From Candidatus Chisholmbacteria bacterium RIFCSPHIGHO2_01_FULL_52_32 (lineage in GTDB: Bacteria > Patescibacteriota > Microgenomatia > UBA1400 > Chisholmbacteraceae): a DNA stretch of 64,000 nt. This document shows positions 20,927-61,140 of this stretch, piece by piece (positions within the stretch are counted from its first letter, which is position 1; every line of letters starts with the position of its first letter). The stretch is taken from positions 11,013 through 75,012 of the forward strand of contig MHCJ01000003.1 of NCBI GenBank assembly GCA_001816585.1, in the 5' to 3' direction. A program made the translations under genes and the position numbers. The notes beneath the pieces are model-generated. The model was given only the letters and a program-made list of their open reading frames with translations. It did not search any database and was not told the origin of the DNA.

Positions 20927-20930
20927 GGAG

Positions 20931-23884: not shown

Positions 23885-24100
23885 TAGCATATTCGCCCCT
23901 TTCTTTGCTTGTCCAAAGAAAGGGGCGAAAGAAAGGACACCCCAGTGAACGATCTCTCGGGAACTCGTTCGCTCATCCTTCGTCATCAAACTCCTCGGGA
24001 TAAACCCTTCGTCGAACAGTCGATGACATTTCAGCGGTATTCGCTCACTTCGTTCTCGAGTAGCTCCGTTCAAAGGGGGGGAGCATTTTATGCTTGAAGA
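23885..24100. repeat. Approximately 200-bp repeat element, copy A (second copy at 60925-61140)
   Basis: Shared blocks with copy B: CTTGTCCAAAGARRGGGG, CCCCAGTGARCGWTCTYTCGRGA, CTCGARTAGCTCCGYTCAAAGGGG. Contains the hairpin CCCCTTTCTTTG-cttgtc-CAAAGAAAGGGG. Confidence 0.5.
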
Positions 24101-24127
24101 TACGGGTATGGTACAATTTTGGCAACA

Positions 24128-24199
24128 CGGAGCGTAGTTCACCGGTAGAACGCTCGGTTCGGGACCGAGAGGTACTGGGTTCAATTCCCAGCGCTCCGA
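24128..24199 (+). tRNA. tRNA-Pro (anticodon CGG)
   Basis: CGGAGCGTAGTTCACCGGTAGAACGCTCGGTTCGGGACCGAGAGGTACTGGGTTCAATTCCCAGCGCTCCGA. Cloverleaf with anticodon loop TT-CGG-GA. Confidence 0.8.
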
Positions 24200-24209
24200 C
24201 TCTTTCCAT

Positions 24210-24281
24210 GTCCCTGTAGCTCAACGGATAGAGCAGAGGTTTCCTAAACCTCCGATAGAGGTTCAATTCCTCTCAGGGACA
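24210..24281 (+). tRNA. tRNA-Arg (anticodon CCT)
   Basis: GTCCCTGTAGCTCAACGGATAGAGCAGAGGTTTCCTAAACCTCCGATAGAGGTTCAATTCCTCTCAGGGACA. Anticodon loop TT-CCT-AA. Confidence 0.8.
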
Positions 24282-24720
24282 CTGCTTGGATAGGGAAAAT
24301 ATCTCCTCGTGAACCTTCGGAATAGGGTTTGTGTTCATCGGCACGCTTCTCCTCTTTCGCTTTTTCGGTCTGGGCATGATGATAGACGTTCCAATCCTGC
24401 TCGCTCATATCTGCGTATCCCGGAGCCGAGGCGATGTTGGCCATGGTTCCCAGGGTCCTATCGCCGATCGGGCGGTAGAAGGCGCCGACAACGATCTCCA
24501 CTTCGCGCTCGAAAACGACGATTGTGGCGTTTAACTCATCGAACGTTTGCTCAATGCCTGGCACAATGAGGAGACCGAAGACGCCATATCCTTCGGTGTC
24601 TTCCCGAGCGTGGTCGCCTTCATGGCTCACCGGTTCGTCAATAACGTGGGAAGGAGTGTCCCTTTCTGCCGCAGCTCTGGCGAGGTCGCCTAAGTTTGAA
24701 CCGACAACTTCCGTGTGCAT
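24244..24720 (-). CDS. Hypothetical acidic protein; 3' end overlaps tRNA-Arg on the opposite strand
   Basis: 158-aa ORF with an ATG at 24720. No family recognised. The 37-bp antisense overlap with the tRNA argues for caution. Confidence 0.35.
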   Translation of the reverse strand: MHTEVVGSNLGDLARAAAERDTPSHVIDEPVSHEGDHAREDTEGYGVFGLLIVPGIEQTFDELNATIVVFEREVEIVVGAFYRPIGDRTLGTMANIASAPGYADMSEQDWNVYHHAQTEKAKEEKRADEHKPYSEGSRGDIFPIQAVSLRGIEPLSEV

Positions 24721-24853
24721 TTGGTCTCTTTTCTCACACCGTGTAAAGTCGGCAGGCAGCGTTGAAAATATAAATTGAGGTTCCTGCTGGGATTACGAAT
24801 CTAAAGATTGAGGATAGTCAGGAGCCAATCCGATAGATCACCTACAATTTAGG

Positions 24854-25288
24854 TTACGGTTGTGACAATGTTTCATCTTCAGCTGCGTTCGGCTTGAGCC
24901 TCTTGTCAATCTCGGAAATCAATTCATGAATTGCTGCAGTTTCGAGTTGACGTGTCTCTAGCAATTGTTGCAAGGTGAGTCCTTGGCTCTCTAGATTAGC
25001 TAGAGTCATCTTTAAGCGTTCTCCGTACTCCGAAGTTCTGTTTGATATCTTATCTGCAACAAGCGTTACCGCGAGTAACCTGATAACTGTACGTCTGTGT
25101 TCATCAGGGACACTTTCATTGAGCCACTCAAGCCTCTTGTCTTGGTCGATACGATCAAAAGCCATTTGTGCATAGGTTGTTACGAGACCCATGTCAGCCT
25201 CGTCCAGGCTGATATCTCCGACGACGCCAAGTATATCTTGAGCTATCTGAGAGAATTTGTCTTTCCTCAACGTTTCTTTATCTGGCAT
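24854..25288 (-). CDS. Hypothetical small acidic helical protein
   Basis: 144-aa ORF, ATG start, first of three tandem small acidic proteins on the minus strand. Confidence 0.4.
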   Translation of the reverse strand: MPDKETLRKDKFSQIAQDILGVVGDISLDEADMGLVTTYAQMAFDRIDQDKRLEWLNESVPDEHRRTVIRLLAVTLVADKISNRTSEYGERLKMTLANLESQGLTLQQLLETRQLETAAIHELISEIDKRLKPNAAEDETLSQP

Positions 25289-25407
25289 ATCGTTACATTT
25301 TCAATCTTTCTCAGCGATGGACATATTGTACCGCAAGAGTCAATGTTTTGTTCGGGATTGAGAGTTGGGGCTTACTGCACGTTGAGCTTTTATGTGGACT
25401 TTGCTTA

Positions 25408-25716
25408 TTATGGGCGTGCGTTTAAGTCTTTCGATCTCTGTTTTCGTTCCTCAAGCTCACTTTGCATTCCGTTCATCGCGGTGTCGAACTCTTGCATAAA
25501 CTGATCGAATTCATCTTGGGTTGCATACTCCGCAAGGAGGTGGATAACTGGGGGAAGTATAGATTGTAGTTTCGTGAGTAATTTGTCTGCTGCCGCAGTG
25601 TCAGAAGAAATGCCGAGTATCTCTCGTAATGTTTCATCTGGTTCAGCGCTGAGCGCGCGTTGCCGCTCGTGCCAGATCGAAGCTATTGGAACCGACTTCA
25701 ACTGCCCGCATGCCAC
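25408..25716 (-). CDS. Hypothetical small acidic protein (paralogous to 25818..26135)
   Basis: 102 aa with a GTG start. Shares the IWHERQRAL / EKWQAEARQRL-type segment and a conserved 5' leader motif with neighbouring genes. Confidence 0.4.
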   Translation of the reverse strand: MACGQLKSVPIASIWHERQRALSAEPDETLREILGISSDTAAADKLLTKLQSILPPVIHLLAEYATQDEFDQFMQEFDTAMNGMQSELEERKQRSKDLNARP

Positions 25717-25817
25717 TATTCTCTCACATCGTGTAAAGTGAGAAACTGCGTATCGTAGTCAGACTCAATGAAGCTTTGTACGGGTGGAGAGTTTCACGAA
25801 TGGGCAGAATGTAGCGC

Positions 25818-26135
25818 TTAGTGTTCTTGACCAAGATATGCATTGATTTCATCTAATCGTTGTCGTGCTTCTGCCTGCCATTTTTCAATCAAATCAAGAT
25901 CCTCAGTTTCCAGTTTACCCGCAGCATCCATTTGGGGAAGTATATTGTTTAATGCCGTCGTTATTGCGTTTATTGTGATCAAATACCGTTGGATCTCGTC
26001 CGGTATGTTGATTTGTAACCACCGCTCGACTTCGGCCTCATCTCTACCTTCCGCAAACATCTGGAGCAGTGTTGAGGCGAGCCTGTCTAATTCCTGAGGA
26101 TCGGAGATGATTCTTCCTGATTCCACGGTTGGCAT
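25818..26135 (-). CDS. Hypothetical small acidic protein
   Basis: 105 aa, ATG start. Confidence 0.4.
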   Translation of the reverse strand: MPTVESGRIISDPQELDRLASTLLQMFAEGRDEAEVERWLQINIPDEIQRYLITINAITTALNNILPQMDAAGKLETEDLDLIEKWQAEARQRLDEINAYLGQEH

Positions 26136-26531
26136 AAATGGTTAGCGCTAATACGTTCAAACAAACGCTCAGCTTAGTGGAATATTTTGTGGGGGAGGGG
26201 GTTCTAGGGACTGAGGGGACTCTTCTGATTGGTGTTGTCTCGTATCTGGAACATGTCCGGGGGCAGTGAGCATCCAAAGTAAGGTATGACCGAAGCCGCG
26301 CAAGGTTCTTCCGAGCTCCTGGTGGAAGTACATCCCGAGCGGTTCTTGTTTCTGATTCGAGCTTATATCCGACTGCGGTACTTCCTGGTGGTAATTAGGT
26401 TTCGGTTCCATGATCTGATCACTCGAGCGGAAAGCCCTTGAGGGGATTCCTCTGAGTATGAGATATACAGGGGAAGTATACCAGAGCGGTCAATTTAATT
26501 ATCTTGGAAGGAGGGGCCTTGGACGGGGGGG

Positions 26532-27491
26532 CTAATTCTTCCTTCCCTTCGGAGTGAGGGAGAAGTCGAGATCGACGGTGATATTCGAATCAATAGTCGT
26601 GGTTTTGCGAATTTTCGTGAATCCTTGCGCATCAGCCTCCACATCATAACTTCCCGGATCGAGGCTGAATGTATAGTTTCCTGAAGCGTCGGTAGATGTC
26701 GTCGCAATGACTCTGGGTTTCCCTTTTGCGCCCGGAAGCATGACGGACATATTCGTTCCCGGGAGAGGATTGCCGGTTGTGGCATGGATGACGGTGCCTG
26801 TCAGCGTCCCTTTGGCTGTTGGGGGGACAGTAGGTGTTGGAGAGACAGTGGGCGTCGGGGTTGGTGGAACAGGATTGACGACTATCGTCGCAGTTTCTCC
26901 GGTAAAGCTTAAGTTTGCAGAGGTCATGTCAACCAGCTGGGTACCGACGGTGTCGAGATTAACTGTGGTTGTCTGGTTTTGCTCTTGGGTTTTCGGTCCG
27001 AATGCAACTTCGGCAAACTCAAATATGCCTGTCGGCGGGGTGGCTCTGTTTGCCGGGGAAAGACCGAGAACGATGAGAATTCTTCCGGTTGTGTTTGCAT
27101 CCGTCAGGGAGGTTTTAGTAACGACGGTACTCATAAGGTTCGTGGGGGCGATTTCTTGGGTGAGTGCAATTTTTGTTTGATCAAAGGCCAGCTCAACACG
27201 GGCAAACCCTAGTTGATTCGATTGCGCATCGAACATGAGTTTCAACGCGGTGTTCGGGGGGATGGTAGCTTGCGATGGGGTGAAATACATTTTTACCACT
27301 TGCTCCTGCGCCTTCGAGCGAAGCTCAGTTTTTCTCTGGACGAGGGAAATACTCAGCGGCATTGCCAATAACACGATTGCCAACAGTATCAATTTTTGGA
27401 AAGTCGAAGGCGGTAATTTGTACCTAAACGGCATTGACTGCGTTCCTTTGTCTGCGAAACCGCTTCCAAGTTGATTCATCCATTCGGGCAT
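26532..27491 (-). CDS. Secreted/anchored protein with a C-terminal carboxypeptidase-regulatory-like (CarboxypepD_reg) domain
   Basis: N-terminal TM anchor, PTPTPT linker, C-terminal GTLTGTVIHATTGNPLPGTNMSV...DASGNYTFSLDPGSYDVEA. The start is ambiguous (27479, 27491 or 27503). Confidence 0.5.
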   Translation of the reverse strand: MPEWMNQLGSGFADKGTQSMPFRYKLPPSTFQKLILLAIVLLAMPLSISLVQRKTELRSKAQEQVVKMYFTPSQATIPPNTALKLMFDAQSNQLGFARVELAFDQTKIALTQEIAPTNLMSTVVTKTSLTDANTTGRILIVLGLSPANRATPPTGIFEFAEVAFGPKTQEQNQTTTVNLDTVGTQLVDMTSANLSFTGETATIVVNPVPPTPTPTVSPTPTVPPTAKGTLTGTVIHATTGNPLPGTNMSVMLPGAKGKPRVIATTSTDASGNYTFSLDPGSYDVEADAQGFTKIRKTTTIDSNITVDLDFSLTPKGRKN

Positions 27492-27506
27492 AGACTTTAC
27501 CACTTT

Positions 27507-29186: not shown

Positions 29187-29187
29187 G

Positions 29188-29580
29188 TTACTCTTCCATT
29201 AAGTCATCTGCCAACTTCAATGTCAAGACGATGATTTTATCCTGGTTTGCGGAGAGCGACGTTCCAACCACGGTGACTCTGGTGCGGTCGAGGGAAAGAG
29301 GACCACCCAGCTTTTTTATCAATATGTCATTGATGAGGAGTTCGGTTGTTCGTCCTTCGTCATCCGTAAGCAAGTATTGTGGTTCTCCGTTCCAGATTAT
29401 GGTTAACCAACCCGTCAGGGAAATTCTATCTAGATCCATGAGTAATGACGGTTCTGGCTTTGTTGGCGGAGGAACACTAGCCGTTCTATTTTGTCTCACT
29501 AATGCGATTGCTACGGTCAGAGTCAGAAAGACCAAACCGAGCAGCCATGCTTTTTTGTTTTGGTTTGCCCTTGAACTCAT
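29188..29580 (-). CDS. Hypothetical membrane-anchored protein
   Basis: The track ORF 29188..29616 starts at TTG; the ATG is at 29580. Has a signal anchor (AWLLGLVFLTLTVAIAL). Confidence 0.35.
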   Translation of the reverse strand: MSSRANQNKKAWLLGLVFLTLTVAIALVRQNRTASVPPPTKPEPSLLMDLDRISLTGWLTIIWNGEPQYLLTDDEGRTTELLINDILIKKLGGPLSLDRTRVTVVGTSLSANQDKIIVLTLKLADDLMEE

Positions 29581-29735
29581 CGTTTTGATTCTGGCAAGAA
29601 GTGTTGTGGCTGTCAAGCATATCCGGATGAATCTTCGAGCGGAATCCTGAAAAGAAGCAGGATTACCAACCTTGAAAGGTCAAACCTTGCAAGGTTGGGT
29701 GGACAGAGGGTTTGGATGGTCTGTACAATGAAGCT

Positions 29736-30392: not shown

Positions 30393-30396
30393 CCCA

Positions 30397-30480
30397 GGGT
30401 ATAGGTTTTAGGGTATAGGGTCTAGGGTTTAGGATAGGGACCTCAGTTTTCAGCCTTCAGTCTTCAGTTTTCAGTTTGTA
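30397..30480. repeat. Heptamer repeat tract (TAGGGTx then TTCAGTC types)
   Basis: gtatagg ttttagg gtatagg gtctagg gtttagg ... tcagttt tcagcct tcagtct tcagttt tcagttt. Confidence 0.75.
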
Positions 30481-33965: not shown

Positions 33966-34078
33966 TGCTGTTTTCAGTATAGCAAATGGCCGATGGCTGA
34001 TGGCAAATGGCTGATGGCTAATGGCAGATAGCAGAGACCTAAACCCTAACCCTAAACCCTAGACCCTAGACCCTTCTT
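33966..34078. repeat. Heptamer repeat tract (ATGGCTG/ATGGCAA then CCTAAAC/CCTAGAC types)
   Basis: aatggcc gatggct gatggca aatggct gatggct aatggca gatagca ... cctaaac cctaacc ctaaacc ctagacc ctagacc. Confidence 0.75.
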
Positions 34079-35384: not shown

Positions 35385-36695
35385 ATGGAGACACTTTTGA
35401 CCGAGAGTTTGTGGGGGGATGAGAGCTTTTCTGCGATGGCGGTGAAGCTGCCGTTTGGGGAAACGATGGGGGTGGTGATGCGGGACACCGCGCCGCCTTT
35501 ATTCTATTTTGTCGGTTGGATCTGGGGAAGGGTGTTTGGTTTTTCTGAAGTGGCGCTGAGGAGCTCGTCTCTGCTTCTCATGATAGGAGCTGCCGTCTTT
35601 GCCTACGCAATCGTCAAACGGATTGGGAAGGACAGGTTTGCGGCAATCGGAGCGGGTTTCCTCTCACTGTTGAGTCCATTTCTCGTTCCGTTTGCTTTTG
35701 AGTTTCGAATGTACGCGCTGTTTGCCTTTCTGGTCGTCGGATCGGTGTACTTTTTTATCGCGAGGAAATGGCGAAGCTATGTCGTGTTTACGGTGGCTGC
35801 GCTTTACAGCCACCATTACGCATTGTTTACCGTTTTCGGGCAGTTTGTCTGGTTTTTGGTGACGGAGTTTCATTGGAAAAGTTGGCGGACCTTCCCTCGA
35901 CAGCTCTGGCCGTTCGTTTTGATCGGCGCGCTTTACATCCCTTGGCTTTATCCGTTTTACCTGCAGATTGCCCGGGTGAAGGGAGCGGGTTTTTGGCTTC
36001 AGGCGCCCGGAGTGTGGGAAATCTTAGGGACCTTGGGTCGTTTTGCAACGGGGGGGGTTCCCGCCGGCTTTGTGTTGCCGACGGCTTTTTTGGTGGGAGG
36101 GCTTCTTCTTGGTAAAGATTGGAAGCGGATCGGCAAACGGTGGCTCGAGCTGTTTGTGATTTTCCTGATGCCGGTTGCGGTAGCGGTTGGGATTTCCCAT
36201 GTTCTGACGCCAATTTTCTACGACCGTTACCTGTTGTCGGTGGCGATCGGGACGGTTATCTTAACCACTCTGGGTATCCGGGGACGGTTTCGGGCGGGTC
36301 TCTTTATGCTTCTGGTTCTGTATGGCTATGTCAGTTTTACGCTCTTTACGCATCCGACGAAGCGACCGTTCCGGGAATTGGCGGCGTACGTTCATTCGGA
36401 ACAACTCGAGGGTGATTTCTTCATTAATTACAACGGGCGGGCCCATCATTTATGGGAATCGAAGTATTACGGGATTTCCGCACCGATCTACACTCCTGCC
36501 GGACCGCTGCCTTTATATGTCGGCACCGCCCAAATGACAGCGGAGGATACCGTGGCGAAATTGCCGGAACAGGCTTTGCGACTTGGGGTCATCACCAGCG
36601 ACCCGGCAGAGACAATTGTTTTGCCCGGAGGCTTCAGGCGCGCCGGTATAAAGGAGTTTGGGGAGTTGAAGGTAGTGTGGTTCTCACACCTTTAA
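35385..36695 (+). CDS. Polytopic membrane protein, GT-C-like glycosyltransferase candidate (ArnT/PMT-like)
   Basis: 12 or more predicted TM helices and a first-loop WGDE acidic motif, typical of the GT-C fold. The family call is tentative. Confidence 0.45.
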   Translation: METLLTESLWGDESFSAMAVKLPFGETMGVVMRDTAPPLFYFVGWIWGRVFGFSEVALRSSSLLLMIGAAVFAYAIVKRIGKDRFAAIGAGFLSLLSPFLVPFAFEFRMYALFAFLVVGSVYFFIARKWRSYVVFTVAALYSHHYALFTVFGQFVWFLVTEFHWKSWRTFPRQLWPFVLIGALYIPWLYPFYLQIARVKGAGFWLQAPGVWEILGTLGRFATGGVPAGFVLPTAFLVGGLLLGKDWKRIGKRWLELFVIFLMPVAVAVGISHVLTPIFYDRYLLSVAIGTVILTTLGIRGRFRAGLFMLLVLYGYVSFTLFTHPTKRPFRELAAYVHSEQLEGDFFINYNGRAHHLWESKYYGISAPIYTPAGPLPLYVGTAQMTAEDTVAKLPEQALRLGVITSDPAETIVLPGGFRRAGIKEFGELKVVWFSHL

Positions 36696-36719
36696 AGGAG
36701 ACTCCCTGCAAGGTTGGTG

Positions 36720-39328: not shown

Positions 39329-40477
39329 ATGAATGTTGGCATTGACGCCTCAAGGGCATTTGTTTCAGAGCGAACCGGGACGGAGAAATACTCCTTAAAG
39401 CTTCTTGAGGCGTTGGGGAAGGTAGACGATAGGAATCGGTATATCATGTATACTCGTACCTTGAAAGGTCTGACCTTGCAAGGTGGGTCTGGTGGGCGGT
39501 TTGCTGTGCGGGAGATCGGGTGGCCGAGGCTGTGGACCCAAGGAGGCCTGGCCGCCCGCACGTGGGTTGACCGCTTAGATGTTCTTTTTATTCCGGCGCA
39601 CACCCTGCCGGTTCTGCGGCGGCCACGGCTTAAGACGGTCGTCACTATTCATGGGCTCGAGTATGAATATCTGCCGCAGTATTACCAGTTTCCCCAAAAA
39701 GTGTACCTCACGTGGTCCACACGCTATGCCGTGCGGTCTGCTACGCGACTGATTGCGGTTTCCCGCTTCACCGCTTCGGAGCTGGTTTCTCGGATGGGAG
39801 CTGATTCTTCAAAAATCCGTGTGATTCATGAAGGTGTTGATGCACTAGGTTATAGTAAATCATATAGCGATAATGTAAAGCATAGTGTTTTGGAGGGCTT
39901 TGGCGTTCGGAAACCCTACGTTCTGTTTGTCGGAGTGGTTCAGCCGAGGAAGAACCTTGTGCGGCTGGTTGAGGCGTTTTCGCTTACTGTGAACAGACTT
40001 TTGGGAGAAAGAAAGGGGTTTCCGGATCTTACCTTGGTCATTGCCGGAAAGCTTGGGTGGATGGTTGAGGAGACACTAAAGGCCCCGCAAAAGTTCGGGG
40101 TGGCGGATCGGGTGAAGTTTTTGGGCTTTGTGGAGGATAAGCATTTACCTTTTCTTATGCAGGAAGCGGAGCTTTTAGTGCAACCAAGCCTCACCGAGGG
40201 CTTTGGGTTACCGGTTTTAGAGGCAATGGCCGCCGGCACGCCGGTTGTGGCTGCTCGGGCGGGGGCATTGCCTGAGGTCTGCGGGGATGCAGCAATTCTC
40301 GTCGATCCTGTTGACGTTGTTAATATTGCAGATGGTCTGTTTCAAGGGCTGACTCACAAGGAGATGAGAAGAAGGCTGACGAAACTGGGTCTCGAGAGGG
40401 TGAAACAGTTTACTTGGGAAAAGGCGGCACAAAAGACACTTGAAGTGTTGGAAGAAGCGGTGGGGGAATCGAGGTAA
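39329..40477 (+). CDS. Glycosyltransferase family 1 (GT4-type, GT-B fold)
   Basis: The C-terminal EGFGLPVLEAMAAGTPVVA is the signature E-x7-E region of retaining GT4 enzymes. An in-frame REP palindrome at 39463-39493 encodes TLKGLTLQGG. Confidence 0.8.
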   Translation: MNVGIDASRAFVSERTGTEKYSLKLLEALGKVDDRNRYIMYTRTLKGLTLQGGSGGRFAVREIGWPRLWTQGGLAARTWVDRLDVLFIPAHTLPVLRRPRLKTVVTIHGLEYEYLPQYYQFPQKVYLTWSTRYAVRSATRLIAVSRFTASELVSRMGADSSKIRVIHEGVDALGYSKSYSDNVKHSVLEGFGVRKPYVLFVGVVQPRKNLVRLVEAFSLTVNRLLGERKGFPDLTLVIAGKLGWMVEETLKAPQKFGVADRVKFLGFVEDKHLPFLMQEAELLVQPSLTEGFGLPVLEAMAAGTPVVAARAGALPEVCGDAAILVDPVDVVNIADGLFQGLTHKEMRRRLTKLGLERVKQFTWEKAAQKTLEVLEEAVGESR

Positions 40478-45908: not shown

Positions 45909-46030
45909 AGATAGGGGATAGGGTTTAGGGTTTAGGGTTTAGCATTCATTTTCAATCATCAGTCTTCAGTTCTCAGTCATCAGCCATTAGCTATTGGCCA
46001 TCTACTATCTGCCATACGCCATTTGCACTC
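45909..46030. repeat. Heptamer repeat tract (TAGGGTT x3 then CAGTCTT/CAGCCAT/CTGCCAT types)
   Basis: gatagggtttagggtttagggtttagc ... cagtctt cagttct cagtcat cagccat tagctat tggccat ctactat ctgccat acgccat ttgcact. Confidence 0.8.
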
Positions 46031-47615: not shown

Positions 47616-47714
47616 AACATAGGGTATAGGGTTTAGGGTATAGGGTTTAAGTGGCATGTGACGTTTTCGTTTTCACTTTTGACTTTTGAGATTTGACTTT
47701 TGCGTATATTACCC

Positions 47715-51810: not shown

Positions 51811-51814
51811 GTCA

Positions 51815-51858
51815 GAGTTATCGACCTTGAAAGGTTCGACCTTACAAGGTGGGTTAGC
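51815..51858. repeat. REP palindrome with the GGTGGGTTAGCCGC tail (right copy)
   Basis: gaccttgaaaggttcgaccttacaaggtgggttagccgcggg. Confidence 0.7.
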
Positions 51859-53768: not shown

Positions 53769-53817
53769 CGATCAGCGTGATTGTATCATAGAGGATTTTT
53801 CGGAGTCCATGAGGAGG

Positions 53818-53859
53818 TTTCTTGATTTTGGTTGGGAAAATTGTAGAATTGCGGGCAAG
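53818..53859 (+). promoter_or_regulatory. Conserved promoter/5' region, copy 1 (TTGATT-17-TAGAAT then TGCGGGCAAG ATG)
   Basis: cttgattttggttgggaaaattgtagaattgcgggcaagATG. Near-identical blocks precede the ATGs at 54755 and 55953. Confidence 0.5.
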
Positions 53860-54636
53860 ATGGGTGATCTTGAGGAGGCTAAACAAAGATATCTTGCAAG
53901 GAAGCAGGCCGAAGAAGCTGAGCAGCGAGCTGTGGAGACAGAGAGGAAAGCGGCTCTGGATTTGAAGTCCACGCAAGTGGCTGAGGAGTGGCGTCACCAT
54001 GAAGCAACATTCAAGGATCAGATTCTTCCAGCTCTTGTAGGTATTGAAGATGATTTCTGGAAGAATCATCTTTCTCCTCAAGTATTGGGTCTCTTTGATG
54101 ATGCGGCTAAAGAAATTGCAAGGAGAGAGCAAATAGCAATGAATAGGAGGATATATTTTGATCATGGAGTTGATCTCAGGGTGGAGCGAGCTCCTGATGT
54201 TACAACTGCTTACCAACGATATAAGCGTGACATGACATTGTTAGGACATTACTTGTACGGAAATTATGAGTTCAAAGAAAGACTTGATCTGAAGCATTTG
54301 ATCTCACTTTGGGAAAGTGGTGAGCTTATGCATCTCCCGGTTACCATGCTGGTTAGCTTTGGGAAAGTAGGGAGGCCGATACCCCCAACTATCGATATAG
54401 TCGGTGGGGGCTCAACATTTGAGGTAAGTTTTAGGGTTGAAAGGGATGGGGTTGTTCGTTGGGGTTGGGGAGATCTTTCTGATGAGTTAGGGGAGAGGAA
54501 GTTTCAGGAGTATAACGGAGATTTCCATACGCTCGCCGACCAATTGTGGGCTGGTATTGAAAAACGGATTTATATGAAAACATATAATATTCGAGGAGGA
54601 GTAGCACGTGATGGTGATGAGCAGGGATGGGCATGA
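53860..54636 (+). CDS. Hypothetical protein, paralog A of a three-member tandem family
   Basis: Starts MGDLEEAKQRYLARKQAEEAEQRA (charged coiled-coil-like) and shares the motif IEDDFWKNHLSP with paralogs B and C. The track ORF begins at an upstream TTG (53809), before the promoter. Confidence 0.45.
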   Translation: MGDLEEAKQRYLARKQAEEAEQRAVETERKAALDLKSTQVAEEWRHHEATFKDQILPALVGIEDDFWKNHLSPQVLGLFDDAAKEIARREQIAMNRRIYFDHGVDLRVERAPDVTTAYQRYKRDMTLLGHYLYGNYEFKERLDLKHLISLWESGELMHLPVTMLVSFGKVGRPIPPTIDIVGGGSTFEVSFRVERDGVVRWGWGDLSDELGERKFQEYNGDFHTLADQLWAGIEKRIYMKTYNIRGGVARDGDEQGWA

Positions 54637-54699: not shown

Positions 54700-54754
54700 C
54701 TAAAGATAGAGGTTTGTTGATTTTAGTGCAGAAAATTGTAGAATTGCGGGCAAA
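54700..54754 (+). promoter_or_regulatory. Conserved promoter/5' region, copy 2
   Basis: ttgattttagtgcagaaaattgtagaattgcgggcaaaATG, preceded by the conserved ggataagggatgatgaagattgtctaaagatag. Confidence 0.5.
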
Positions 54755-55888
54755 ATGGCTTGGAATCAAGAATCAGAGAGAATGAGGGTCAGGGAGAGAG
54801 AGGTTGATGAGGTCTTAATTACTCACACCGTCGAGCACGTAGTCCGGCTGACTACAGGAGCTGAGTCTGTTGATCCAATATCACGATGGGATGTTCTTCA
54901 GGAACTTGTGATTCCTATCCTAGAGCTTGATTATTGGAGAAGAAACATCACTCCAGAGATTGAAGTCTTACTTCGAAATAATGCGCTTGATCTTCAGGCC
55001 AGAGAGCGCCGTAAGTATGGAGAGACGCTGGAACTCTTGCCTCGATATTTTTCAGCAACAGCGACGGTCCTAGATGAGAGAGACAAAGTAACACTTTTAT
55101 CACGGCTTCAAAATCCCTACCGAGATATGAACCCCTCACAAATAGTTGATTTGTTATCACGAAAGAGAGGATGGGTAATGGAACAATTGGATGAGATGTT
55201 TACTGTCGGGAGAGGGTTTGTTTTTTCTCATGAGAGGTTGCTGGAAGGATTACCGCCCGAAGAATTGCCAGGAACAAGGAGGGTTTGGTGTGTAGGAGTT
55301 CAAGCTGTTGGCGACAGGATGAAAGCCTTTATAGGAAGTGAGGAGACTGACTTTAACCGTCACGTTGCGGCAAATAAAAAATGGGATAGCGCTGGTCTTT
55401 CACGGTGGTTTTCGGAGCATATTCAATCTGGAAAAAAGGGGCATACTTTTTTCCCACTTCAGTGGGATGAAATATATCGAGGAGGCTGGTATTGGAATAT
55501 TGATCAGCCCTCTATTAATAAACCAGTCGAGTTCATAGCAGCGATCTCCCATATAGGATCGTTTTCAGAACTTCTTGTACTTCTTGCAGAGAAAGACAGG
55601 TTTATCACCAAGCCAAAGGTGGTTGTTGTCAAGCCTGAAGAGCAAGAAGCGAAGCAGACACTCACGCAAACTATCTATACCCCAGAATTTGGTCTATCGG
55701 AACCGCCACTCATTTCAGATCCAAGGTTGGCTTTAAATCCTCGAGCACAGATGTTGGCGGCACAAGGGTTTCCGGAATGGAAGATACGGGCAATGTTTGA
55801 TGAGGAGGAGATGGAAATGCGTAAGCGTTCTAGTGGAGATCGCTATCTCCGAGGAGGAGATCACGCGTCGGGAGCGGATAGGGGATGA
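54755..55888 (+). CDS. Hypothetical protein, paralog B
   Basis: 377 aa. Shares LELDYWRRNITP with A and C. Ends ...GADRG, followed by the conserved GATAGGGGATGATGAAGATT block. Confidence 0.45.
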   Translation: MAWNQESERMRVREREVDEVLITHTVEHVVRLTTGAESVDPISRWDVLQELVIPILELDYWRRNITPEIEVLLRNNALDLQARERRKYGETLELLPRYFSATATVLDERDKVTLLSRLQNPYRDMNPSQIVDLLSRKRGWVMEQLDEMFTVGRGFVFSHERLLEGLPPEELPGTRRVWCVGVQAVGDRMKAFIGSEETDFNRHVAANKKWDSAGLSRWFSEHIQSGKKGHTFFPLQWDEIYRGGWYWNIDQPSINKPVEFIAAISHIGSFSELLVLLAEKDRFITKPKVVVVKPEEQEAKQTLTQTIYTPEFGLSEPPLISDPRLALNPRAQMLAAQGFPEWKIRAMFDEEEMEMRKRSSGDRYLRGGDHASGADRG

Positions 55889-55899
55889 TGAAGATTCTT

Positions 55900-55952
55900 T
55901 AAGATAGGGATCTCTTGACTTTAAACAAAGGAAATGTAGAATTGCGGGCAAT
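55900..55952 (+). promoter_or_regulatory. Conserved promoter/5' region, copy 3 (TTGACT-17-TAGAAT)
   Basis: cttgactttaaacaaaggaaatgtagaattgcgggcaatATG. Confidence 0.5.
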
Positions 55953-56681
55953 ATGAGTAGACTTGAGGAAGCGAGAGCTAGAATTGCAGCTCAAGAACAT
56001 GCGGCACAGGAAGCCAGGGAGAAATGGGAGCAAGAGGAAGAGCTACGTAAAAGAGACTTTGAGTCTCTCAAGCCTGAGCTGGAAAGAATTGAGCTCGAAT
56101 TCTGGCGGGCACATGTCCCAGTCCAACTTACTGATCTCTATTCGGAAGTGCGAAGAACAATTGAAGAGAAAGAAGGATTTCAGATGGATGAAGTCATCAG
56201 ATTTTACTATGGGGAGTATTCACTGCATCATGAGGTTGTACGTTACTCTTCTGGTAAACAAGAGAATCGATGGGATAAAATGTATGGTCTCCGAGATGAT
56301 GCGGTTGGATTATGGAGGGAAGGGAAATTAGCCCAGATTCCTTTGCGGAGCGTGTCACTTGAATATATTCATAGCAAGAGAGCTGGCGACTCTGAAACTG
56401 TCAACAGAATACACTTTGAAGTTGGTCAGGATGATAAAGCCACTTGGACTGTGGGTGACGGAAAAAAATATTTCTTTGATCCAGAAAGGGGAATACATGG
56501 GAACTTTGACAGAGATGGACATGGTAAATGTGGAACTTCCAATTCTGATATAGATTTACTCGCGGAGCTTATGATCCCGTTTATTAATGGAAGACAATAC
56601 CATTACGGGATTGATCATTCTCCTGGTCCAAAAGACCGAGCTGGTGATGATGGGAGCTCTGGTGGTCCTGGCGGGCATTAG
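55953..56681 (+). CDS. Hypothetical protein, paralog C
   Basis: MSRLEEARARIAAQEHAAQEAREKWEQEEELRKRDFESLKPELERIELEFWRAHVPVQL; Gly/Asp-rich C-terminus. Confidence 0.45.
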   Translation: MSRLEEARARIAAQEHAAQEAREKWEQEEELRKRDFESLKPELERIELEFWRAHVPVQLTDLYSEVRRTIEEKEGFQMDEVIRFYYGEYSLHHEVVRYSSGKQENRWDKMYGLRDDAVGLWREGKLAQIPLRSVSLEYIHSKRAGDSETVNRIHFEVGQDDKATWTVGDGKKYFFDPERGIHGNFDRDGHGKCGTSNSDIDLLAELMIPFINGRQYHYGIDHSPGPKDRAGDDGSSGGPGGH

Positions 56682-56786
56682 GTAACTTGAGGATCAGCCA
56701 TAGGCTTGATCTGAGCAGAGGATGTCTTCCTTGTTAGATTCCCCTTATCGTTGTCTTCTTTCTCCATCTCGCATATAGTTAATTTT

Positions 56787-56855
56787 ATGCGTGTGCTTTT
56801 TGTTGCCGCGGAGGCGGCGCCTTTAGTCAAGGTCGGGGGTTTGTCGCAGTCTTAA
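56787..56855 (+). pseudogene. Truncated remnant of a glycogen synthase (glgA) 5' end
   Basis: atgcgtgtgctttttgttgccgcggaggcggcgcctttagtcaaggtcgggggtttgtcgcagtcttaa encodes MRVLFVAAEAAPLVKVGGLSQS*. The 5' part matches glgA-2 (57831) and the GGLSQ part matches glgA-1 (46092). Confidence 0.55.
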
Positions 56856-56897
56856 GGAAATGATCAGGAGTTTATTCCAAGCGCTGGTTTACTATCG

Positions 56898-57539
56898 TTA
56901 AACAGCTCGTACTACTTCCGGATCTCCTTGACTAAACCGAGAAAGCTCTTGTTTTATGGCTTCGGGGTTGCTATTCGCCCTTATTAGAGGACCCATCGTT
57001 TCGGATAGCCATTTACCGTCGATTGTTTGCTGGGAATCACGCAAGATTCTCCTGCCGTCACTGGCCAGTAAAGACCAGGCTACCCCGCTTGATAATGCGT
57101 GCTGTCGTTCGTTGGGTCCTCTGGAGGTGTTGAGAAGCTCACGGATATAGGTTGCAAGCAGCCAGCGCTGGGCTCCTGCCGCTCTTTCGGATCCCAACTC
57201 CCTATAGTGTGAATAGTTGGGTAGATTTCTTATTCTTTCTACAAGAGCTTCTCTTGTCCGATCGAAGAAAGAATCCGCAACGCCGCTATTGCCGGAAAGA
57301 TACAGACGCATTGAAGATACTTCAAGTTTCACCTGTTGTCGTAATAAGCCTTTTATGATTTTGTCCGCAGCCTCCAGTCCACTTTTTGTTGAATCAAACT
57401 CGGCAAACCTTTCTAGTGCATCAAAGACGCTGCGTATTCCATCCTCAGTCTTCCTCTTTACTTCTGCGAGGAGGGTTTCTTTTTTCTCGGTTGGCGTTTG
57501 TTCTTGAGGGATTCCTTCTTCCTCGGGAGGTTGTTCCAT
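56898..57539 (-). CDS. Hypothetical protein
   Basis: 213 aa, ATG start, acidic N-terminus. Confidence 0.35.
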   Translation of the reverse strand: MEQPPEEEGIPQEQTPTEKKETLLAEVKRKTEDGIRSVFDALERFAEFDSTKSGLEAADKIIKGLLRQQVKLEVSSMRLYLSGNSGVADSFFDRTREALVERIRNLPNYSHYRELGSERAAGAQRWLLATYIRELLNTSRGPNERQHALSSGVAWSLLASDGRRILRDSQQTIDGKWLSETMGPLIRANSNPEAIKQELSRFSQGDPEVVRAV

Positions 57540-57738
57540 AGCCTTCTTGTTGTAGAGGACTGAAGATAGTGTACTACAAAAAGGACAGTATAAACATTCC
57601 TTGCGAGGTAGTCTTGAGAAGTCATTGGGGAACCAGAGCGGTTCCTTCGTGGACGCTCTTCTTGAAACGAAAGGCGTGCGAGGAGAATTATCTGAAGGTG
57701 GGACATAATTCCTAGGTTCTTTGACAACTTGTCACGTA

Positions 57739-57772
57739 GAGGTCGGACCTCTGCACAGAGGTCCGACCTCTT
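57739..57772. promoter_or_regulatory. Perfect 15-bp inverted repeat (AGAGGTCGGACCTCT gcac AGAGGTCCGACCTCT) in a divergent intergenic region
   Basis: Read directly in sequence. Lies between the minus-strand gene 56898..57539 and glgA-2. A related GGTCCGACG-tta-CGTCGGACC hairpin occurs at about 61041-61065. Confidence 0.45.
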
Positions 57773-57830
57773 AAGGCTCCTATTTTTCATGAGTCTTTGC
57801 CATAAGAAGAATTCATAGTACACTTAAGCA

Positions 57831-59159
57831 ATGCGCGTCTTATATGTTGCTGCGGAGGCGGCGCCGATTGTCAAGGTCGGGGGTCTTGGGGATGTAGCGG
57901 GAAGCCTTCCTTTGGCTTTGAAGCGGCTAGGGGTGGATGTGCGGGTGGCTATCCCCTGGTATCCGGAGATCGATGCTTTGCGATGGCAAGTTCAGGAGAA
58001 CGGTGGGGTGGGGGTGACGAGGCTTGGCGAGAGCGAGGTGCCAGTCTATCTTCTGGCTCGGGATGTGTTTGCCGATGCCGGGCCTCATAAGGCGATCGCG
58101 GGGACGAAGGCAGAGGAAACCTGGTTCTCCGGTTTCTGCGATGCGGTCGTAACGTTTCTGAAAGACTCCGAATGGAAGCCGGAAGTCTTGCACGGGAACG
58201 ATTGGCATGTGGCACGGGCCTTGTCCTTTGTTGAGAGAACCTCTCGTGAGACCTTCAGCCAGTGGGGATTTACCCATAAGAACCTGGCGACCATCCTCAC
58301 CATTCATAACCTCAGCTACCACCCAAAAATGATGAAAGAGGCTATTCTTGCTGCGGATGTGATCAACGCGGTTTCACCGACCTATGCGAAAGAAATTCTT
58401 ACTTCAGATTATTGCGAGGGACTCTGTGAAGAGCTCAATGCACGGAAAGCAGATCTTTACGGGATCTTAAACGGGATTGATTACGGAGTTTGGAGTCCGG
58501 AGACGGATGCGCGTGTCTCGACTAAGTACAGCACGGTAACTTGGAAGACGGGAAAAGCGGGAAACAAGATGGCTTTGCGGCAGAAGCTCGGTCTTGCAAA
58601 AGAGGGGGGAATGCTTCTCGGGTTTGTCGGCAGGATCGACGCCAACCAGAAGGGCATCGGGATTTTGGCTGAGGCCATGGACCGGTTGGTGGCGTTGGGT
58701 AGCCAGGTGGTCGTACTGGGGACCGGTGACCCGAAATATGAGAAACGACTGGCCTTGGTGGCTGCCCGTTATCCGAAGAACGTCGCATGTATTTTGCGCT
58801 ACGATGAAGATTTGGCGCACCTTATCTATGCGGGGGCGGATGCGCTGCTTATTCCGAGCAAATTTGAACCCTGCGGATTGATCCAATTGATCGGCATGCG
58901 GTATGGAACTCTCCCAATTGCGCGGGCAACCGGGGGACTTTCCGATACTATTCGGGACGGTGAAACCGGGTTTCTGTTTACCGCATATTCTTCTCAAGGG
59001 TTGGTCGGGGCCGTTGAGCGGGCCCGGGACATGTTCGCGGCCGAACCGGTTTCATGGGAAGTGTTGGTCGGAACCGGCATGCGCGAGGATTTTTCCTGGG
59101 ACCGTTCGGCTGAAGAATATCTTAGGCTGTATGAGCGCGCGCTTGCAAAAAGTGGGTAG
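57831..59159 (+). CDS. glgA: Glycogen/starch synthase (GT5), paralog 2
   Basis: MRVLYVAAEAAPIVKVGGLGDVAGSLPLAL (canonical K-V-G-G-L-G-D-V). GT-B C-terminal domain. Confidence 0.85.
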   Translation: MRVLYVAAEAAPIVKVGGLGDVAGSLPLALKRLGVDVRVAIPWYPEIDALRWQVQENGGVGVTRLGESEVPVYLLARDVFADAGPHKAIAGTKAEETWFSGFCDAVVTFLKDSEWKPEVLHGNDWHVARALSFVERTSRETFSQWGFTHKNLATILTIHNLSYHPKMMKEAILAADVINAVSPTYAKEILTSDYCEGLCEELNARKADLYGILNGIDYGVWSPETDARVSTKYSTVTWKTGKAGNKMALRQKLGLAKEGGMLLGFVGRIDANQKGIGILAEAMDRLVALGSQVVVLGTGDPKYEKRLALVAARYPKNVACILRYDEDLAHLIYAGADALLIPSKFEPCGLIQLIGMRYGTLPIARATGGLSDTIRDGETGFLFTAYSSQGLVGAVERARDMFAAEPVSWEVLVGTGMREDFSWDRSAEEYLRLYERALAKSG

Positions 59160-59355
59160 CTTTTCTCCTGTTTATCCTCCTTTCTTGTTCTTGATCAAGG
59201 TTATTCCTCTTGTGACTTGTGTGCCGCTATGTTTTTATTGAATCGATTCATTGAAATAACTGTGGAGGATCTGGGAAAGGAGGTGAGAGTTTCTGACCCA
59301 AGTTTCAAAGCGCATTCTTTCTGATGGAGAATGGAGAGTCCTCTGGGAGCGATTT

Positions 59356-59712
59356 TTGGACGTCATCGGAAAAACACAAGGTCGTTCAACGCTTTCGATG
59401 GTGTTCCGCGGCTTCCTAACGCCTACCGAGCAGGTAATGCTTTCAAAGCGTGTTATGGCGGGGTTTTTGATCCTGTCCGATTGGGACGCGTATGCGATAT
59501 CCAGTGTGCTTAAGCTTTCGGTTTCAACCGTCTATAAGTTGAAGCATTATCTTGAGTTGAGCAAAGACTACCGGAAGTTTTTGGAAAAACTTTTACCTAA
59601 GAAAATTCCCTTCCAACCGCAAAAAGGTCCGTCGGCCATACCGCCATTGGTCAAGTTACTTGAGAACATCTTTGAGGGCTACAGGCATCGGTCAAGACTG
59701 CTCTACAGCTAA
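59356..59712 (+). CDS. Hypothetical protein
   Basis: TTG start in the track. The frame stays open upstream to about 59287 without an ATG. No motif recognised. Confidence 0.3.
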   Translation: MDVIGKTQGRSTLSMVFRGFLTPTEQVMLSKRVMAGFLILSDWDAYAISSVLKLSVSTVYKLKHYLELSKDYRKFLEKLLPKKIPFQPQKGPSAIPPLVKLLENIFEGYRHRSRLLYS

Positions 59713-60000
59713 CATGAGTAGCATGGTAGTGAGGTAGTAAGGTAGTAAGAATCTCTTTTACCTGCCTTATCACAAATGAATGAATCGATTGATCGATTCA
59801 TTGTAATGAACAAGAGGGTTGCAATTGAAATATTGAAGGTCGAGTTAGGCAAGCGGGGTGAGATTAGATAAAGAGATGGGTGGCTTCTTTCAGGTATTAG
59901 GGTTGGTTGATTAAGGTGAGAGGCTAGTGAACTGGAGTGTAGATGGACTTCTGATTTCGCAATAGGTTATAGTAGAAATGAAAGATACGGAGGATTTTGC

Positions 60001-60912
60001 ATGGCAAAGTTTGTTCCTGATGTGAATACGAGACGGTGGGTGGTGATTGCCCCTTCCCGCAGCAGCAGGCCGAAGGATAAGGATCATGACATCAATCACG
60101 GAGCGACGCCCGCGCCTGAGCCTCAAGTGGAACTTCCCAAGCGGAACGGCTACAGCTTTAATGAAACCTGCCCGTTTTGCTATGGAAACGAGAAGAGCAC
60201 GCCCCCGGAAATATACCGATGGGGGAGGAAAGATCCCCACGACCCGGATTGGGTGGTTCGGGTGGTTCCCAACAAGTATCCGATTACCGATATCCACGAA
60301 GTGATCATCCATTCTCCGGATCATCTGACCGATATTGACGATTTCCCTCAGGAACATGTGGAAATTATCCTGCGCGTTTACCGCGAGCGGTACAATGCCC
60401 TGCGGAAAAGGGGCCAGGTCATTATTTTTGTAAATGTCGGACCGCAAAGCGGTGCCTCGCTGCAGCATCCACACTCCCAAGTTGTCGTGGTGCCGCATCA
60501 GATCAATTTGGATGTGCTCGCGATTGAGCCTGTCGGTAATGTCATTGAGGAAGGGGAACACTTCATCGCCTGGTCGCCCGATTTTTCCCAATGGCCGTGG
60601 GAGGTGTGGATCGCTCCAAAAATCTGTTGTCAGCGGGAGCACGAGAAGGGAGAGCAGTGCTTTTTTGGCGGTATCCGTGACGAGCAGATTCCGGAGCTTT
60701 CCAGGCTTCTTCAGGCTATGCTGCAACGGCTGCTCGTTCGTTTTCCTGAGATGAGCTACAATTTCTATATTTTTCCGGGAGAATGTTGGTATCTCCGCTT
60801 GATCCCCAGGCTCGTCCACCGTGCGGGTTTTGAGCTCGGAACCGGGCTTTCGGTGAACATCGCCGATCCGACGACGGTAGCAGGGGAGCTGAAGAAGAAC
60901 GGCTCGGCTTAG
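60001..60912 (+). CDS. galT: Galactose-1-phosphate uridylyltransferase-like (HIT superfamily, GalT family)
   Basis: Zn-binding CPFCYGNE near the N-terminus and active-site GASLQHPHSQVV (H-P-H-x-Q). SD acggagg lies upstream. Confidence 0.75.
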   Translation: MAKFVPDVNTRRWVVIAPSRSSRPKDKDHDINHGATPAPEPQVELPKRNGYSFNETCPFCYGNEKSTPPEIYRWGRKDPHDPDWVVRVVPNKYPITDIHEVIIHSPDHLTDIDDFPQEHVEIILRVYRERYNALRKRGQVIIFVNVGPQSGASLQHPHSQVVVVPHQINLDVLAIEPVGNVIEEGEHFIAWSPDFSQWPWEVWIAPKICCQREHEKGEQCFFGGIRDEQIPELSRLLQAMLQRLLVRFPEMSYNFYIFPGECWYLRLIPRLVHRAGFELGTGLSVNIADPTTVAGELKKNGSA

Positions 60913-60924
60913 ATATTCTTCTTT

Positions 60925-61140
60925 ACTTGTCCAAAGAGGGGGTTACTTTCTTACTCGTCTAAGAAAGTAACCAAAGAATGACGCCCCAGTGAGCGTTCTT
61001 TCGAGAGCTTGCTTGCTTATTTTATGCGACCAAAGGTCCGACGTTACGTCGGACCGCTGGAACGCGCTCTGGTCGCATCCTATAGGTATTCGCGCGCTAC
61101 GCTCTCGAATAGCTCCGCTCAAAGGGGATATTTAGGAGAG
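60925..61140. repeat. Approximately 200-bp repeat element, copy B (direct orientation relative to copy A at 23885-24100)
   Basis: ACTTGTCCAAAGAGGGGG, CCCCAGTGAGCGTTCTTTCGAGA, CTCGAATAGCTCCGCTCAAAGGGGA; internal hairpins GGTTACTTTCTTA-ctcgtc-TAAGAAAGTAACC and GGTCCGACG-tta-CGTCGGACC. Confidence 0.5.

Follow-up and report, generated by a model that had tools for sequence, protein, structure and literature searches.

Bacterial repeats of the BOX, ERIC/IRU and RUP types, found in Streptococcus and enterobacteria, have no open reading frame (ORF), are modular, measure 100-200 nucleotides (nt), form stable folds and have no identified mobilising enzyme. A structured element of ~200-230 nt, present as two full-length copies (A and B) in a 64-kb stretch of contig MHCJ01000003.1 (the window) from Candidatus Chisholmbacteria bacterium RIFCSPHIGHO2_01_FULL_52_32, a member of the candidate phyla radiation (CPR), resembles these repeats in several respects. 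It is intergenic, often lies just past genes with which it would be co-transcribed, is present in some related genomes and absent from others, and contains a repeatable module, as in the two 5' hairpins of copy B. However, it has no sequence similarity to them and is restricted to a CPR lineage, and its old copies (58-60% identical) keep a multi-helix fold, a covarying pseudoknot and conserved unpaired bases, which makes it more like a functional RNA.

Other known systems share different parts of this description. Replication-linked strand bias is known for IS200/IS605 elements, and PATE elements and the ωRNAs of TnpB/IscB systems resemble the Chisholmbacteria element in replication strand bias, selection for a single-strand fold, overlap with the 3' end of ORFs and multiple copies; the ωRNAs are, in addition, pseudoknotted RNAs of ~150-250 nt. 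The ORFs upstream of the element are, however, unrelated housekeeping genes rather than tnpB or iscB, neither of which lies next to any copy, and the element lacks both a left-end/right-end (LE/RE) pair of subterminal hairpins and any match to the Rfam ωRNA, HEARO or IS605 families. Its long-stem domain recalls 6S RNA (RF00013) in having a closing stem of ~20 base pairs (bp), a two-sided bubble of 19/24 nt and a 7-bp P4 helix with a tip, and a bacterium may have more than one gene for 6S RNA, just as the element is multi-copy. It differs in its shorter rod (~140 nt as opposed to ~180), its extra 5' pseudoknot, its insertion polymorphism and the absence of an Rfam match at E <= 10; rather than one or two independently transcribed genes, there are three copies in ~74 kb, and no promoter was found at any of 12. 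Finally, SINE-like and non-LTR retroelements are copied from the 3' end, and their fragments share a 3' terminus. Selection on the fold at the RNA level, the general lack of an own promoter, 5'-truncated fragments that share the 3' end and lie head-to-tail with full copies, and short tandem (heptamer) repeats after some 3' ends are all reminiscent of these elements. No reverse transcriptase has been identified, however, no target-site duplications were seen and 5'-end fragments also occur, and we know of no SINE-like elements in bacteria.

Members and fold of the family

Copies A and B both lie on the + strand, ~37 kb apart, as a sequence-only reading of the window had noticed, and the three blocks that it found common to them each occur exactly twice in the 64 kb, where shuffles give an expectation of 0.00-0.19. 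The stable hairpins that it described are also present, with fold z-scores of -5.5 (copy A) and -6.9 (copy B) relative to shuffled sequence. A covariance model of seven family members, run on the window with filters off, recovers A and B as the only full copies, at 178.5 and 175.9 bits. Copy A occupies 23885-24094 (covariance model 23892-24094; nhmmer 23882-24087), and copy B, originally placed at 60925-61140, is longer and runs from 60913 to 61150 (covariance model 60938-61137). The neighbours are those already named, tRNA-Pro at 24128 for copy A and an HTH_17/MerR ORF at 61224-61481 for copy B. A neighbouring protein matches one from a Chisholmbacteria MAG of the Rifle aquifer at 100% identity, so the window belongs to the Microgenomates group of the CPR.

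The family comprises 13 distinct sequences, from one Candidatus Chisholmbacteria metagenome-assembled genome (MAG) and several (aquifer) metagenomes. A gapped pattern scan of one genome per species gave one true relative (L001, the Candidatus Chisholmbacteria MAG), and a scan of metagenome contigs gave four more distinct copies (L003, L009, L010 and L011) and one sequence identical to copy A (L005). The covariance model, built from seven sequences, was then used to find further members: a truncated third copy on the 253-kb contig shared with L010 and L008, a copy in a related genome, at its GalT locus (L038), diverged members in L034 and L037, and, ~2.7 kb to the left of the window, a third full copy in the window's own genome (L040 600-793). 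There are therefore three full copies in ~74 kb of this genome, and three copies on the 253-kb contig. Matches in a Yoonia genome (L002) and in two metagenomes (L013 and L014) are chance, lacking common flanks or a model score; two matches to block 3 among viral contigs were likewise rejected by the covariance model. BLAST of phage and plasmid records with both copies gave no match. Identity among the three copies of this genome is only 58-60%, and each is nearer to copies in other genomes. L010 is a mosaic, in that it has the same ~52-nt pseudoknot domain as copy B, letter for letter, and a body that most resembles copy A (identity 87% by BLAST and 78% over a global alignment). Contigs frequently break inside copies or just past them.

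The case for a conserved fold is carried by covariation. Blocks 2 (CCCCAGTGARCGWTCTYTCGRGA) and 3 (CTCGARTAGCTCCGYTCAAAGGGG) pair with each other to form a single long closing stem, so they are not independent, and block 1 is the loop and 3' strand of the 5' hairpin. In the closing stem, A and B differ by compensatory changes, as in TGAACG/CGTTCA (A) against TGAGCG/CGCTCA (B), and again in CTCGGGAAC/GTTCTCGAG against TTCGAGAGC/GCTCTCGAA. The comparison of A with B that the sequence-only reading had proposed gives, over 44 pairs, 27 that are identical, 13 that are changed on both sides and still paired, 1 wobble and 3 broken; of the unpaired columns, 45% differ. RNAalifold finds these 44 pairs, in six helices, in an alignment of seven sequences (A3), and 20 of them show compensatory changes, compared with 1-5 double-changed pairs in controls in which the partners were slid. 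In this alignment 94.8% of cells are paired, as against 36-46% in the slid controls, and none of 500 shuffles matched the observed pairing score. With 13 sequences (A5, an alignment fitted to the model and hence biased toward structure), 96.1% of cells are paired and 26 of the 44 pairs are double-changed; slid controls across both alignments reach 1-7. The fold is thus under selection for pairing, and this selection is strand-specific. G.U cells outnumber A.C cells by 20 to 2 on the + strand of the seven-sequence consensus, which marks the given strand as the one that folds, as does a conserved G.U pair in helix P3.

From its 5' end, the element consists of a leader, a pseudoknot domain and a long-stem domain. 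The leader is short (consensus AAGCAGAT) and is followed by stem S1, of 11-14 bp, whose 5' strand is rich in U and whose 3' strand is rich in A. In copy A, S1 spans 23894-23927 (CGCCCCTTTCTTTG/CAAAGAAAGGGGCG, with the loop CTTGTC at 23908-23913). This helix covaries, with double changes at 8 of 12 pairs in the 5'-domain alignment and 7 of 11 in A5. After an A-rich linker (CCAAAGAAG), the long-stem domain (23940-24078 in copy A, from the RNAalifold consensus and pair counts; 60984-61127 in copy B, from the minimum free energy fold and alifold) begins with helix P1 (CCCC/GGGG; 23940-43 and 24075-78 in A, 60984-87 and 61124-27 in B) and a conserved AG/AA internal loop. P2 (UGARCG/CGYUCA; 23946-51 and 24067-72 in A, 60990-95 and 61116-21 in B) is followed by a 2x3 loop with UAGCU, and P3, of 11 bp (23954-64 and 24052-63 in A, 60998-61008 and 61101-12 in B), contains the conserved G.U pair in 7 of 9 sequences. 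P1 to P3 together make up the bulged closing stem of ~20 bp. The bubble beyond it, ~19 nt on one side and ~24 nt on the other (23965-82 and 24028-51 in copy A), carries UCGCUCA on either side. It leads to P4, in which CAAACUCC and GUCGGACAGU are conserved and the tip is variable (GTCATC 23983-88 with GATGAC 24022-27 in A; GCGACC 61026-31 with GGTCGC 61071-76 in B, where the tip hairpin is enlarged). Length variation is found at hairpin tips; it amounts to 39 nt in S1 for Chis and L011, and to 89 nt in P4 for L038. The tail of copy B (ATATTTAGGAGAGTGTCTTTTTT, 61128-61150) finishes with T6. This copy also has an extra 5' hairpin, CTTCTTT-aCTTGTCc-AAAGAGG (60918-60939), similar to S1 of copy A yet lacking a partner for a pseudoknot; two tandem hairpins likewise open the L038 copy, which occupies the same locus.

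The loop of S1 is complementary to the linker directly 5' of P1, and the two covary. In copy A, the loop bases TGTCC (23910-23914) face GGACA (23935-23939) to give a second stem, S2 (23910-23939), whose halves are separated by an A-rich strand at 23928-23934. In copy B the pseudoknot domain spans 60941-60983, with S1 formed by GGTTACTTTCTTA (60941-53) and TAAGAAAGTAACC (60960-72) and S2 by CGTC (60956-59) and GACG (60980-83). The pairs are UGUCC/GGACA in copy A, CGUC/GACG in copy B and L010, CGUCC/GGACG in L038, GCACCC/GGGUGC in L003, GCACUC/GAGUGC in the third L008 copy and CACA/UGUG in L034. Over ten 5' domains, all four counted S2 pairs covary, and 97.5% of cells are paired as against 37-45% when slid. 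Different loop and linker versions occur within one genome (A and B), which argues that the pairing itself is conserved rather than a protein-binding dyad. On this covariation, the 5' domain is a predicted H-type pseudoknot, with UGUC/GACA, CGUC/GACG, CACC/GGUG, CACU/AGUG and CACA/UGUG as the observed pairings. Its dimensions, with an S1 of 12 bp, an S2 of 4-6 bp, an L1 of 2 nt and an L3 formed by a 10-12-nt A-rich strand that faces the U/A-rich S1, are those of a class that includes recoding pseudoknots, SAM-II and preQ1-type aptamers, exonuclease-resistant RNAs and the telomerase RNA core. A further likeness to this class is its place at or just past a stop codon. There is, however, no downstream frame for recoding and no riboswitch-like gene association, and the likeness is architectural only.

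Further pairings were considered and dropped. Copies A and B allow a helix to be drawn from leader to tail, which is not the case for L010 or L003. Pairing of GGAG in the tail with CUCC in the loop has one suggestive covariation (CUUC/GAAG in L010), but it was given up because the motif is absent from the tail of the third copy. The consensus of the AG/AA loop does not fit a K-turn.

The Rfam/Infernal search that had been proposed for both copies gives no match to any Rfam 15 family, including 6S, ωRNA/HEARO/IS605-orfB, riboswitches, ribozymes and STAXI. At gathering thresholds the window contains only tRNAs and an L10 leader, and the permissive scans (E <= 10 for copies A, B, L011, L007 and L006; E <= 1 for the L010 region) yield chance miRNA-type matches only. 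The literature searched on non-coding RNAs of CPR bacteria and Chisholmbacteria, and on the conserved blocks, gave no relevant description, and the family appears to be undescribed in either source. There is no conserved reading frame, since stops fall at different places in each frame among the copies and indels are not multiples of three.

Sites, transcription and fragments

Copy B begins directly past the TAG stop codon (60910-60912) of a GalT-like gene, and the spacer between this gene and the HTH_17 gene measures 311 nt (60913-61223). In five related contigs the same two genes are convergent, 5-38 nt apart, with no element between them, and the 311 nt of the window are therefore an insertion. 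The five contigs (L034, L035/36, L037 and L039) represent four distinct relatives, L035 and L036 encoding the same protein, and the GalT proteins of these relatives are 69-79% identical. The HTH gene had been read as excisionase-like, but it neighbours the GalT-like gene in relatives without the element; it is instead a conserved gene of the core, and the element was inserted into the spacer beside it. In another relative (L038, GalT 84% identical) the site does hold an element, of the copy-A rather than the copy-B type: 16 pairs are the same as in copy A and 2 compensatory, while 8 are the same as in copy B and 10 compensatory. The GalT site has thus been occupied more than once, or has been converted.

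A second locus, 3' of a gene encoding a CoA-binding protein, is filled in two species (L003, and L027/L011) and empty in a third (L028-30). Between L003 and L027, at one locus, there are 3 compensatory, 3 wobble and 3 broken pairs, and the fold is kept. A gene of the bAvd/23S-rRNA-IVP family is found at the empty site of L028 (2640-3023). At a third locus, a diverged copy in L037 lies on the opposite strand between the ATG start codon of rplJ and the L10 leader; start codon and leader are directly adjacent in the window and in L034. The window leader is located at 62742-62851 on the minus strand (compare L017 12917-14506). The interval between rplJ and rplA is a hot spot in this lineage, with extra unannotated ORFs of 280, 67 and 149 amino acids (aa) here and up to 6 kb in L034. 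The many copies and the presence or absence between related genomes that characterise a dispersed repeat are seen at the GalT, CoA-binding and rplJ-leader loci.

The tRNA neighbourhood of copy A recurs once, at a copy upstream of tRNA genes in L010, and is not general. A group I intron (Rfam, 82.7 bits) interrupts the tRNA gene just 3' of the L010 copy (L010 9429-9641, minus strand), and a T-box-like leader precedes trpS at ~8950-9200 of the same contig. On the other side of copy A, a divergent ORF of ~725-758 aa for a TrwB/HerA/TraG-type ATPase (21700-23875, minus strand) abuts its 5' end, and the longest reading of this ORF crosses the pseudoknot domain to an ATG at 23976.

No + strand promoter was found for the element in 12 copies. 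An extended -10 box of the form TGNTAMAAT, which seems to be the strong-promoter form of this lineage, occurs at 0 of 12 element copies and at 4 of 4 control tRNA loci. At these tRNA genes it lies ~10 nt 5' of the mature end (window 24109-24117 and 7683-7725; L010 9330-9345 and 9680-9700). That of tRNA-Pro (TGGTACAAT, 24109-24117, + strand) is outside the element, so that tRNA-Pro is independent of copy A. A promoter-like match on the minus strand of the copy A loop (TGGACA...TATGCT) is not conserved, as the loop sequence covaries with the linker. A T-run of the kind found in intrinsic terminators is present in copy B only, and there is no consistent terminator among copies.

Ten of 12 copies lie 0-460 nt 3' of a co-oriented gene, and the usual distance from its stop codon to the start of the element is 0-100 nt; S1 itself contains the stop codon of the upstream ORF in L003 and L027. 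The folded strand is the G-rich strand, also in 10 of 12 copies; this is the orientation bias expected of IS200/IS605 elements, although it is compatible with other models. GC skew in the lineage is very strong (0.14-0.21). In the window it averages +0.14 and is positive nearly throughout, with 29 genes on the + strand and 26 on the - strand.

Fragments of the element adjoin full copies. Five pieces consist of the 3' end only and lie downstream of full copies. One, at 61154-61186 of the window on the + strand, corresponds to the last ~33 nt of an L003-like copy (TATTCTTGAATTGTTGCGTTCAAAGGGG...; repeat search, nhmmer profile positions 171-205), is 79% identical to the 3' end and flank of L003, and is followed by an AAGCTAN-type array at 61196-61228. 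Another is at L003 3558-3582, and three in L040 (853-884, ~885-921 and 973-993) are interleaved with heptamer arrays. For four of the five, nhmmer gave starts at profile positions 171, 182, 182 and 186 and ends at 202-212, while that at L040 ~885-921 was placed by eye only. Pieces with only the 5' end are also found, namely the first hairpins of copy B and L038, 33 nt that follow L010, and L034 7957-7872; they weaken the signal of a SINE-like 3' anchoring.

Other repeats in the window

About 35 intergenic arrays of 7-nt tandem units occur in the window, often with two different arrays adjacent; examples are at 697-731, 4231-4354, 7201-7278, 7458-7532, 15193-15227, 30396-30477, 33982-34074, 45919-45987, 47619-47702 and 62694-62730. 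The units include TAGGGTA, AAAAGTT, TAGCAAA, CCCTCAA, ATGGCTG, CTGAATA and others. The same types are found in related genomes (L003, L028 and L040), some of them directly after the 3' end of the element. The idea that UAGCU of the element serves as a template for AAGCTAN heptamers was rejected, since chance is expected to give a match of 5 nt that includes a palindrome, and most of the window's arrays are not close to copies.

A family of REP-like units, ACCTTGAAAGGT-CTG-ACCTTTCAAGGT, forms a perfect 12-bp hairpin and occurs at 20929-20969, 21438-21478, 21654-21694, 29659-29699, 36678-36718, 39448-39488 and 51814-51854, the last four of these sites being intergenic. Two copies bracket an IS200-like Y1_Tnp ORF (20959-21687, minus strand) and one unit lies inside it, which looks like a RAYT/REP arrangement. 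The units are unrelated in sequence to the ~200-nt element, which is accordingly not a member of this REP/BIME-RAYT pair.

In L040, ~3 kb to the left of the window, five perfect short hairpins are found at 300-450, four of the form xxxAGT-CNN-ACTxxx, and a similar hairpin is located at 2480-2530 of the window. Two stretches of the window resemble other Chisholmbacteria contigs: 2396-2466 is 83% identical over 71 nt to L003 774-844, and 14441-14494 is 93% identical over 54 nt to L010 11857-11910. A 50-nt repeat (GAGGTTTCTTGATTTT...TGTAGAATTGCGGGCAA) occurs at 53814-53863, 54709-54758 and 55907-55956, at or just before the starts of three consecutive ORFs (53809, 54755 and 55953), and may be a common promoter or leader of a trio of paralogous genes.

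Possible nature of the element and its meaning

With some reserve, we favour the reading that the copies are members of a dispersed family of structured repeats of ~200-230 nt, promoter-less and insertion-prone, that act as folded RNA. Its functional form would be the + strand folded on itself as a single strand, in all likelihood as RNA, and the element would be a non-autonomous repeat, selfish or domesticated, rather than a classical independently transcribed small RNA (sRNA) gene. Such a reading takes in the conservation of the family and of its pseudoknotted fold, the lack of an own promoter, the gain, loss and exchange at intergenic sites, the end fragments and the orientation bias. Of the possibilities raised by the sequence-only reading, a non-coding RNA family and a MITE-like element are supported in combination, by the further copies, the covariation and the insertion-prone behaviour, whereas a discrete RNA gene is not, given that no promoter was found at 12 copies. 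The element may be a DNA-borne cassette that inserts at gene boundaries, in most cases immediately 3' of a stop codon and in the orientation of the upstream gene; from there it would be transcribed by read-through as the 3' end of that gene's mRNA. The fold could be kept for the element's own propagation via a single-stranded intermediate, for an effect on the host transcript, or for both, and the 5' pseudoknot would probably serve as a block or stabiliser, so that a stable RNA with the conserved long-stem domain remains.

Several points weigh against this interpretation. No terminal inverted repeats were found at the true ends of the element: the sole long inverted repeat (P1-P3) is internal, with the ~55-nt leader and pseudoknot outside it in every copy, unlike the arrangement in a MITE. 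Target-site duplications are not visible at the GalT/HTH_17 or rplJ insertions, where the empty sites are too diverged (69-79% protein identity) to fix the junctions, and no transposase, reverse transcriptase or integrase is consistently near copies. The three copies of this genome, at 58-60% identity, are not the product of a recent burst. Subfamilies common to several species, and the fold kept between L003 and L027, fit host selection as well as selfish propagation. Copy A and the L037 copy are divergent to the adjacent start codon, so that read-through into them is not obvious, and the G.U excess and strand bias are partly confounded with the strong leading-strand G+T skew. Transcription, the RNA ends and the choice of RNA over single-stranded DNA are inferred from sequence.

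A host family of trans-acting non-coding RNAs, either sibling sRNAs or sRNAs derived from 3' untranslated regions (3' UTRs), is possible, if less probable; the copies would be paralogous and their presence or absence ordinary sRNA turnover. Candidate modes of action include Shine-Dalgarno binding via CAAACUCCU, protein titration, and 6S-like mimicry of an open promoter via the stem-bubble-stem structure, for which the long-stem domain, with its closing stem, 19/24-nt bubble and terminal stem, offers some basis. Conservation of both the multi-helix fold and unpaired nucleotides, with variation limited to helix tips, would be natural for such RNAs, as would old paralogues (58-60% identical within one genome) that all still fold and copies that persist at one locus across species (L003 and L027). 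A site just past the stop codon is also typical of 3'-UTR sRNAs. However, such RNAs would be left without promoters at 12 of 12 copies and without a consistent terminator, and no copy matches 6S or any other Rfam family at E <= 10. The implied density, ~1 copy per 25 kb or tens per 1.16-Mb genome, is far above that of any known sRNA family, and truncated fragments adjoining full copies, an insertion that separates the L10 leader from rplJ, and the presence of the other subfamily at the same site in L038 weigh against such a family as well. Mobility at the DNA level, in which the element would fold as single-stranded DNA on the lagging-strand template and be moved by an HUH/Y1 transposase, as in PATE or REP/RAYT-like systems, with RNA irrelevant, seems unlikely. 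It would account for the G-rich folded strand in 10 of 12 copies despite the nearly even distribution of window genes (29 to 26), for the presence/absence pattern and for the missing promoter, and a Y1_Tnp gene lies 2.2 kb from copy A. That gene, however, is flanked by its own, unrelated REP-like palindromes (ACCTTGAAAGGT), the single 5' hairpin of the element has no matching 3' hairpin, and no ωRNA or IS605 family of Rfam is matched. To our knowledge, HUH enzymes have no requirement for a covarying pseudoknot with an A-rich crossing strand or for a conserved G.U pair.

Spread through an RNA intermediate, by which the element would be a bacterial SINE-like retro-repeat, or else a catalytic or guide RNA, is equally unlikely. 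In that case the pseudoknot-plus-rod fold would be recognised by a reverse transcriptase or another enzyme, the 3'-anchored fragments with heptamer tails would be footprints of copying from the 3' end, and the copies would enter single-stranded DNA at the replication fork; no reverse transcriptase was found in Pfam scans of ~30 window ORFs (~74 kb of genome read). The gene contexts come close to refuting a cis-regulatory leader or riboswitch for a downstream gene, such as tRNA-Pro for copy A, and we regard it as very improbable. Small riboswitch aptamers are similar in size to the H-type pseudoknot, and tRNA genes follow both copy A and the L010 copy, as an aldolase gene follows the Chis copy. 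The downstream genes (tRNAs, aldolase, membrane protein) are unrelated, however, copy B, L003 and L027 are each followed by a convergent gene, the tRNAs are served by promoters of their own past the element and no Rfam riboswitch is matched. The att footprint suggested by the sequence-only reading, taken here to mean that A and B are the attL/attR direct repeats of an integrated element of ~37 kb at the tRNA-Pro region and the HTH_17 protein its excisionase, is refuted by gene content and empty sites. In its favour, direct repeats 37 kb apart lie one beside tRNA genes and the other beside the HTH_17 gene, and short duplicates of the element's 3' end (GCGTTCAAAGGGG) adjoin copies, as at tRNA/tmRNA att sites. 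Those duplicates, however, are tens of bases apart, with neither island nor integrase; the 37 kb encode MreB, glgC, two glycogen synthases, GH57 enzymes and glycosyltransferases, housekeeping content that marks the interval as core genome and not an island. The repeats, moreover, are only ~59% identical overall and contain no tRNA sequence, further copies lie outside the interval, and the HTH_17 gene stays beside the GalT-like gene where the element is missing. Also refuted, and least probable of all, is the possibility that the copies are drifted duplicated spacer DNA, as the sequence-only reading had allowed, or a small protein-coding gene: the covariation is far above controls and more copies exist, and although a 62-codon ORF runs through copy A, the differing stops and the indel lengths noted above argue against coding.

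CPR bacteria have tiny genomes and, as far as we know, almost no described non-coding RNAs. A family of structured repeats of the kind favoured here may be present at tens of intergenic sites of a genome of 1.16 Mb, with a two-domain pseudoknotted fold that is kept across copies only ~60% identical and inserted at gene boundaries. The element should be masked or modelled in the annotation of these genomes, and its covariation-supported fold is a ready target for structure probing and metatranscriptomics. Should it prove to be a mobile element at the RNA level, structured RNA would have a new route by which to spread in bacteria; should it prove to be a host RNA, it would rank among the first lineage-specific RNA families of the CPR.

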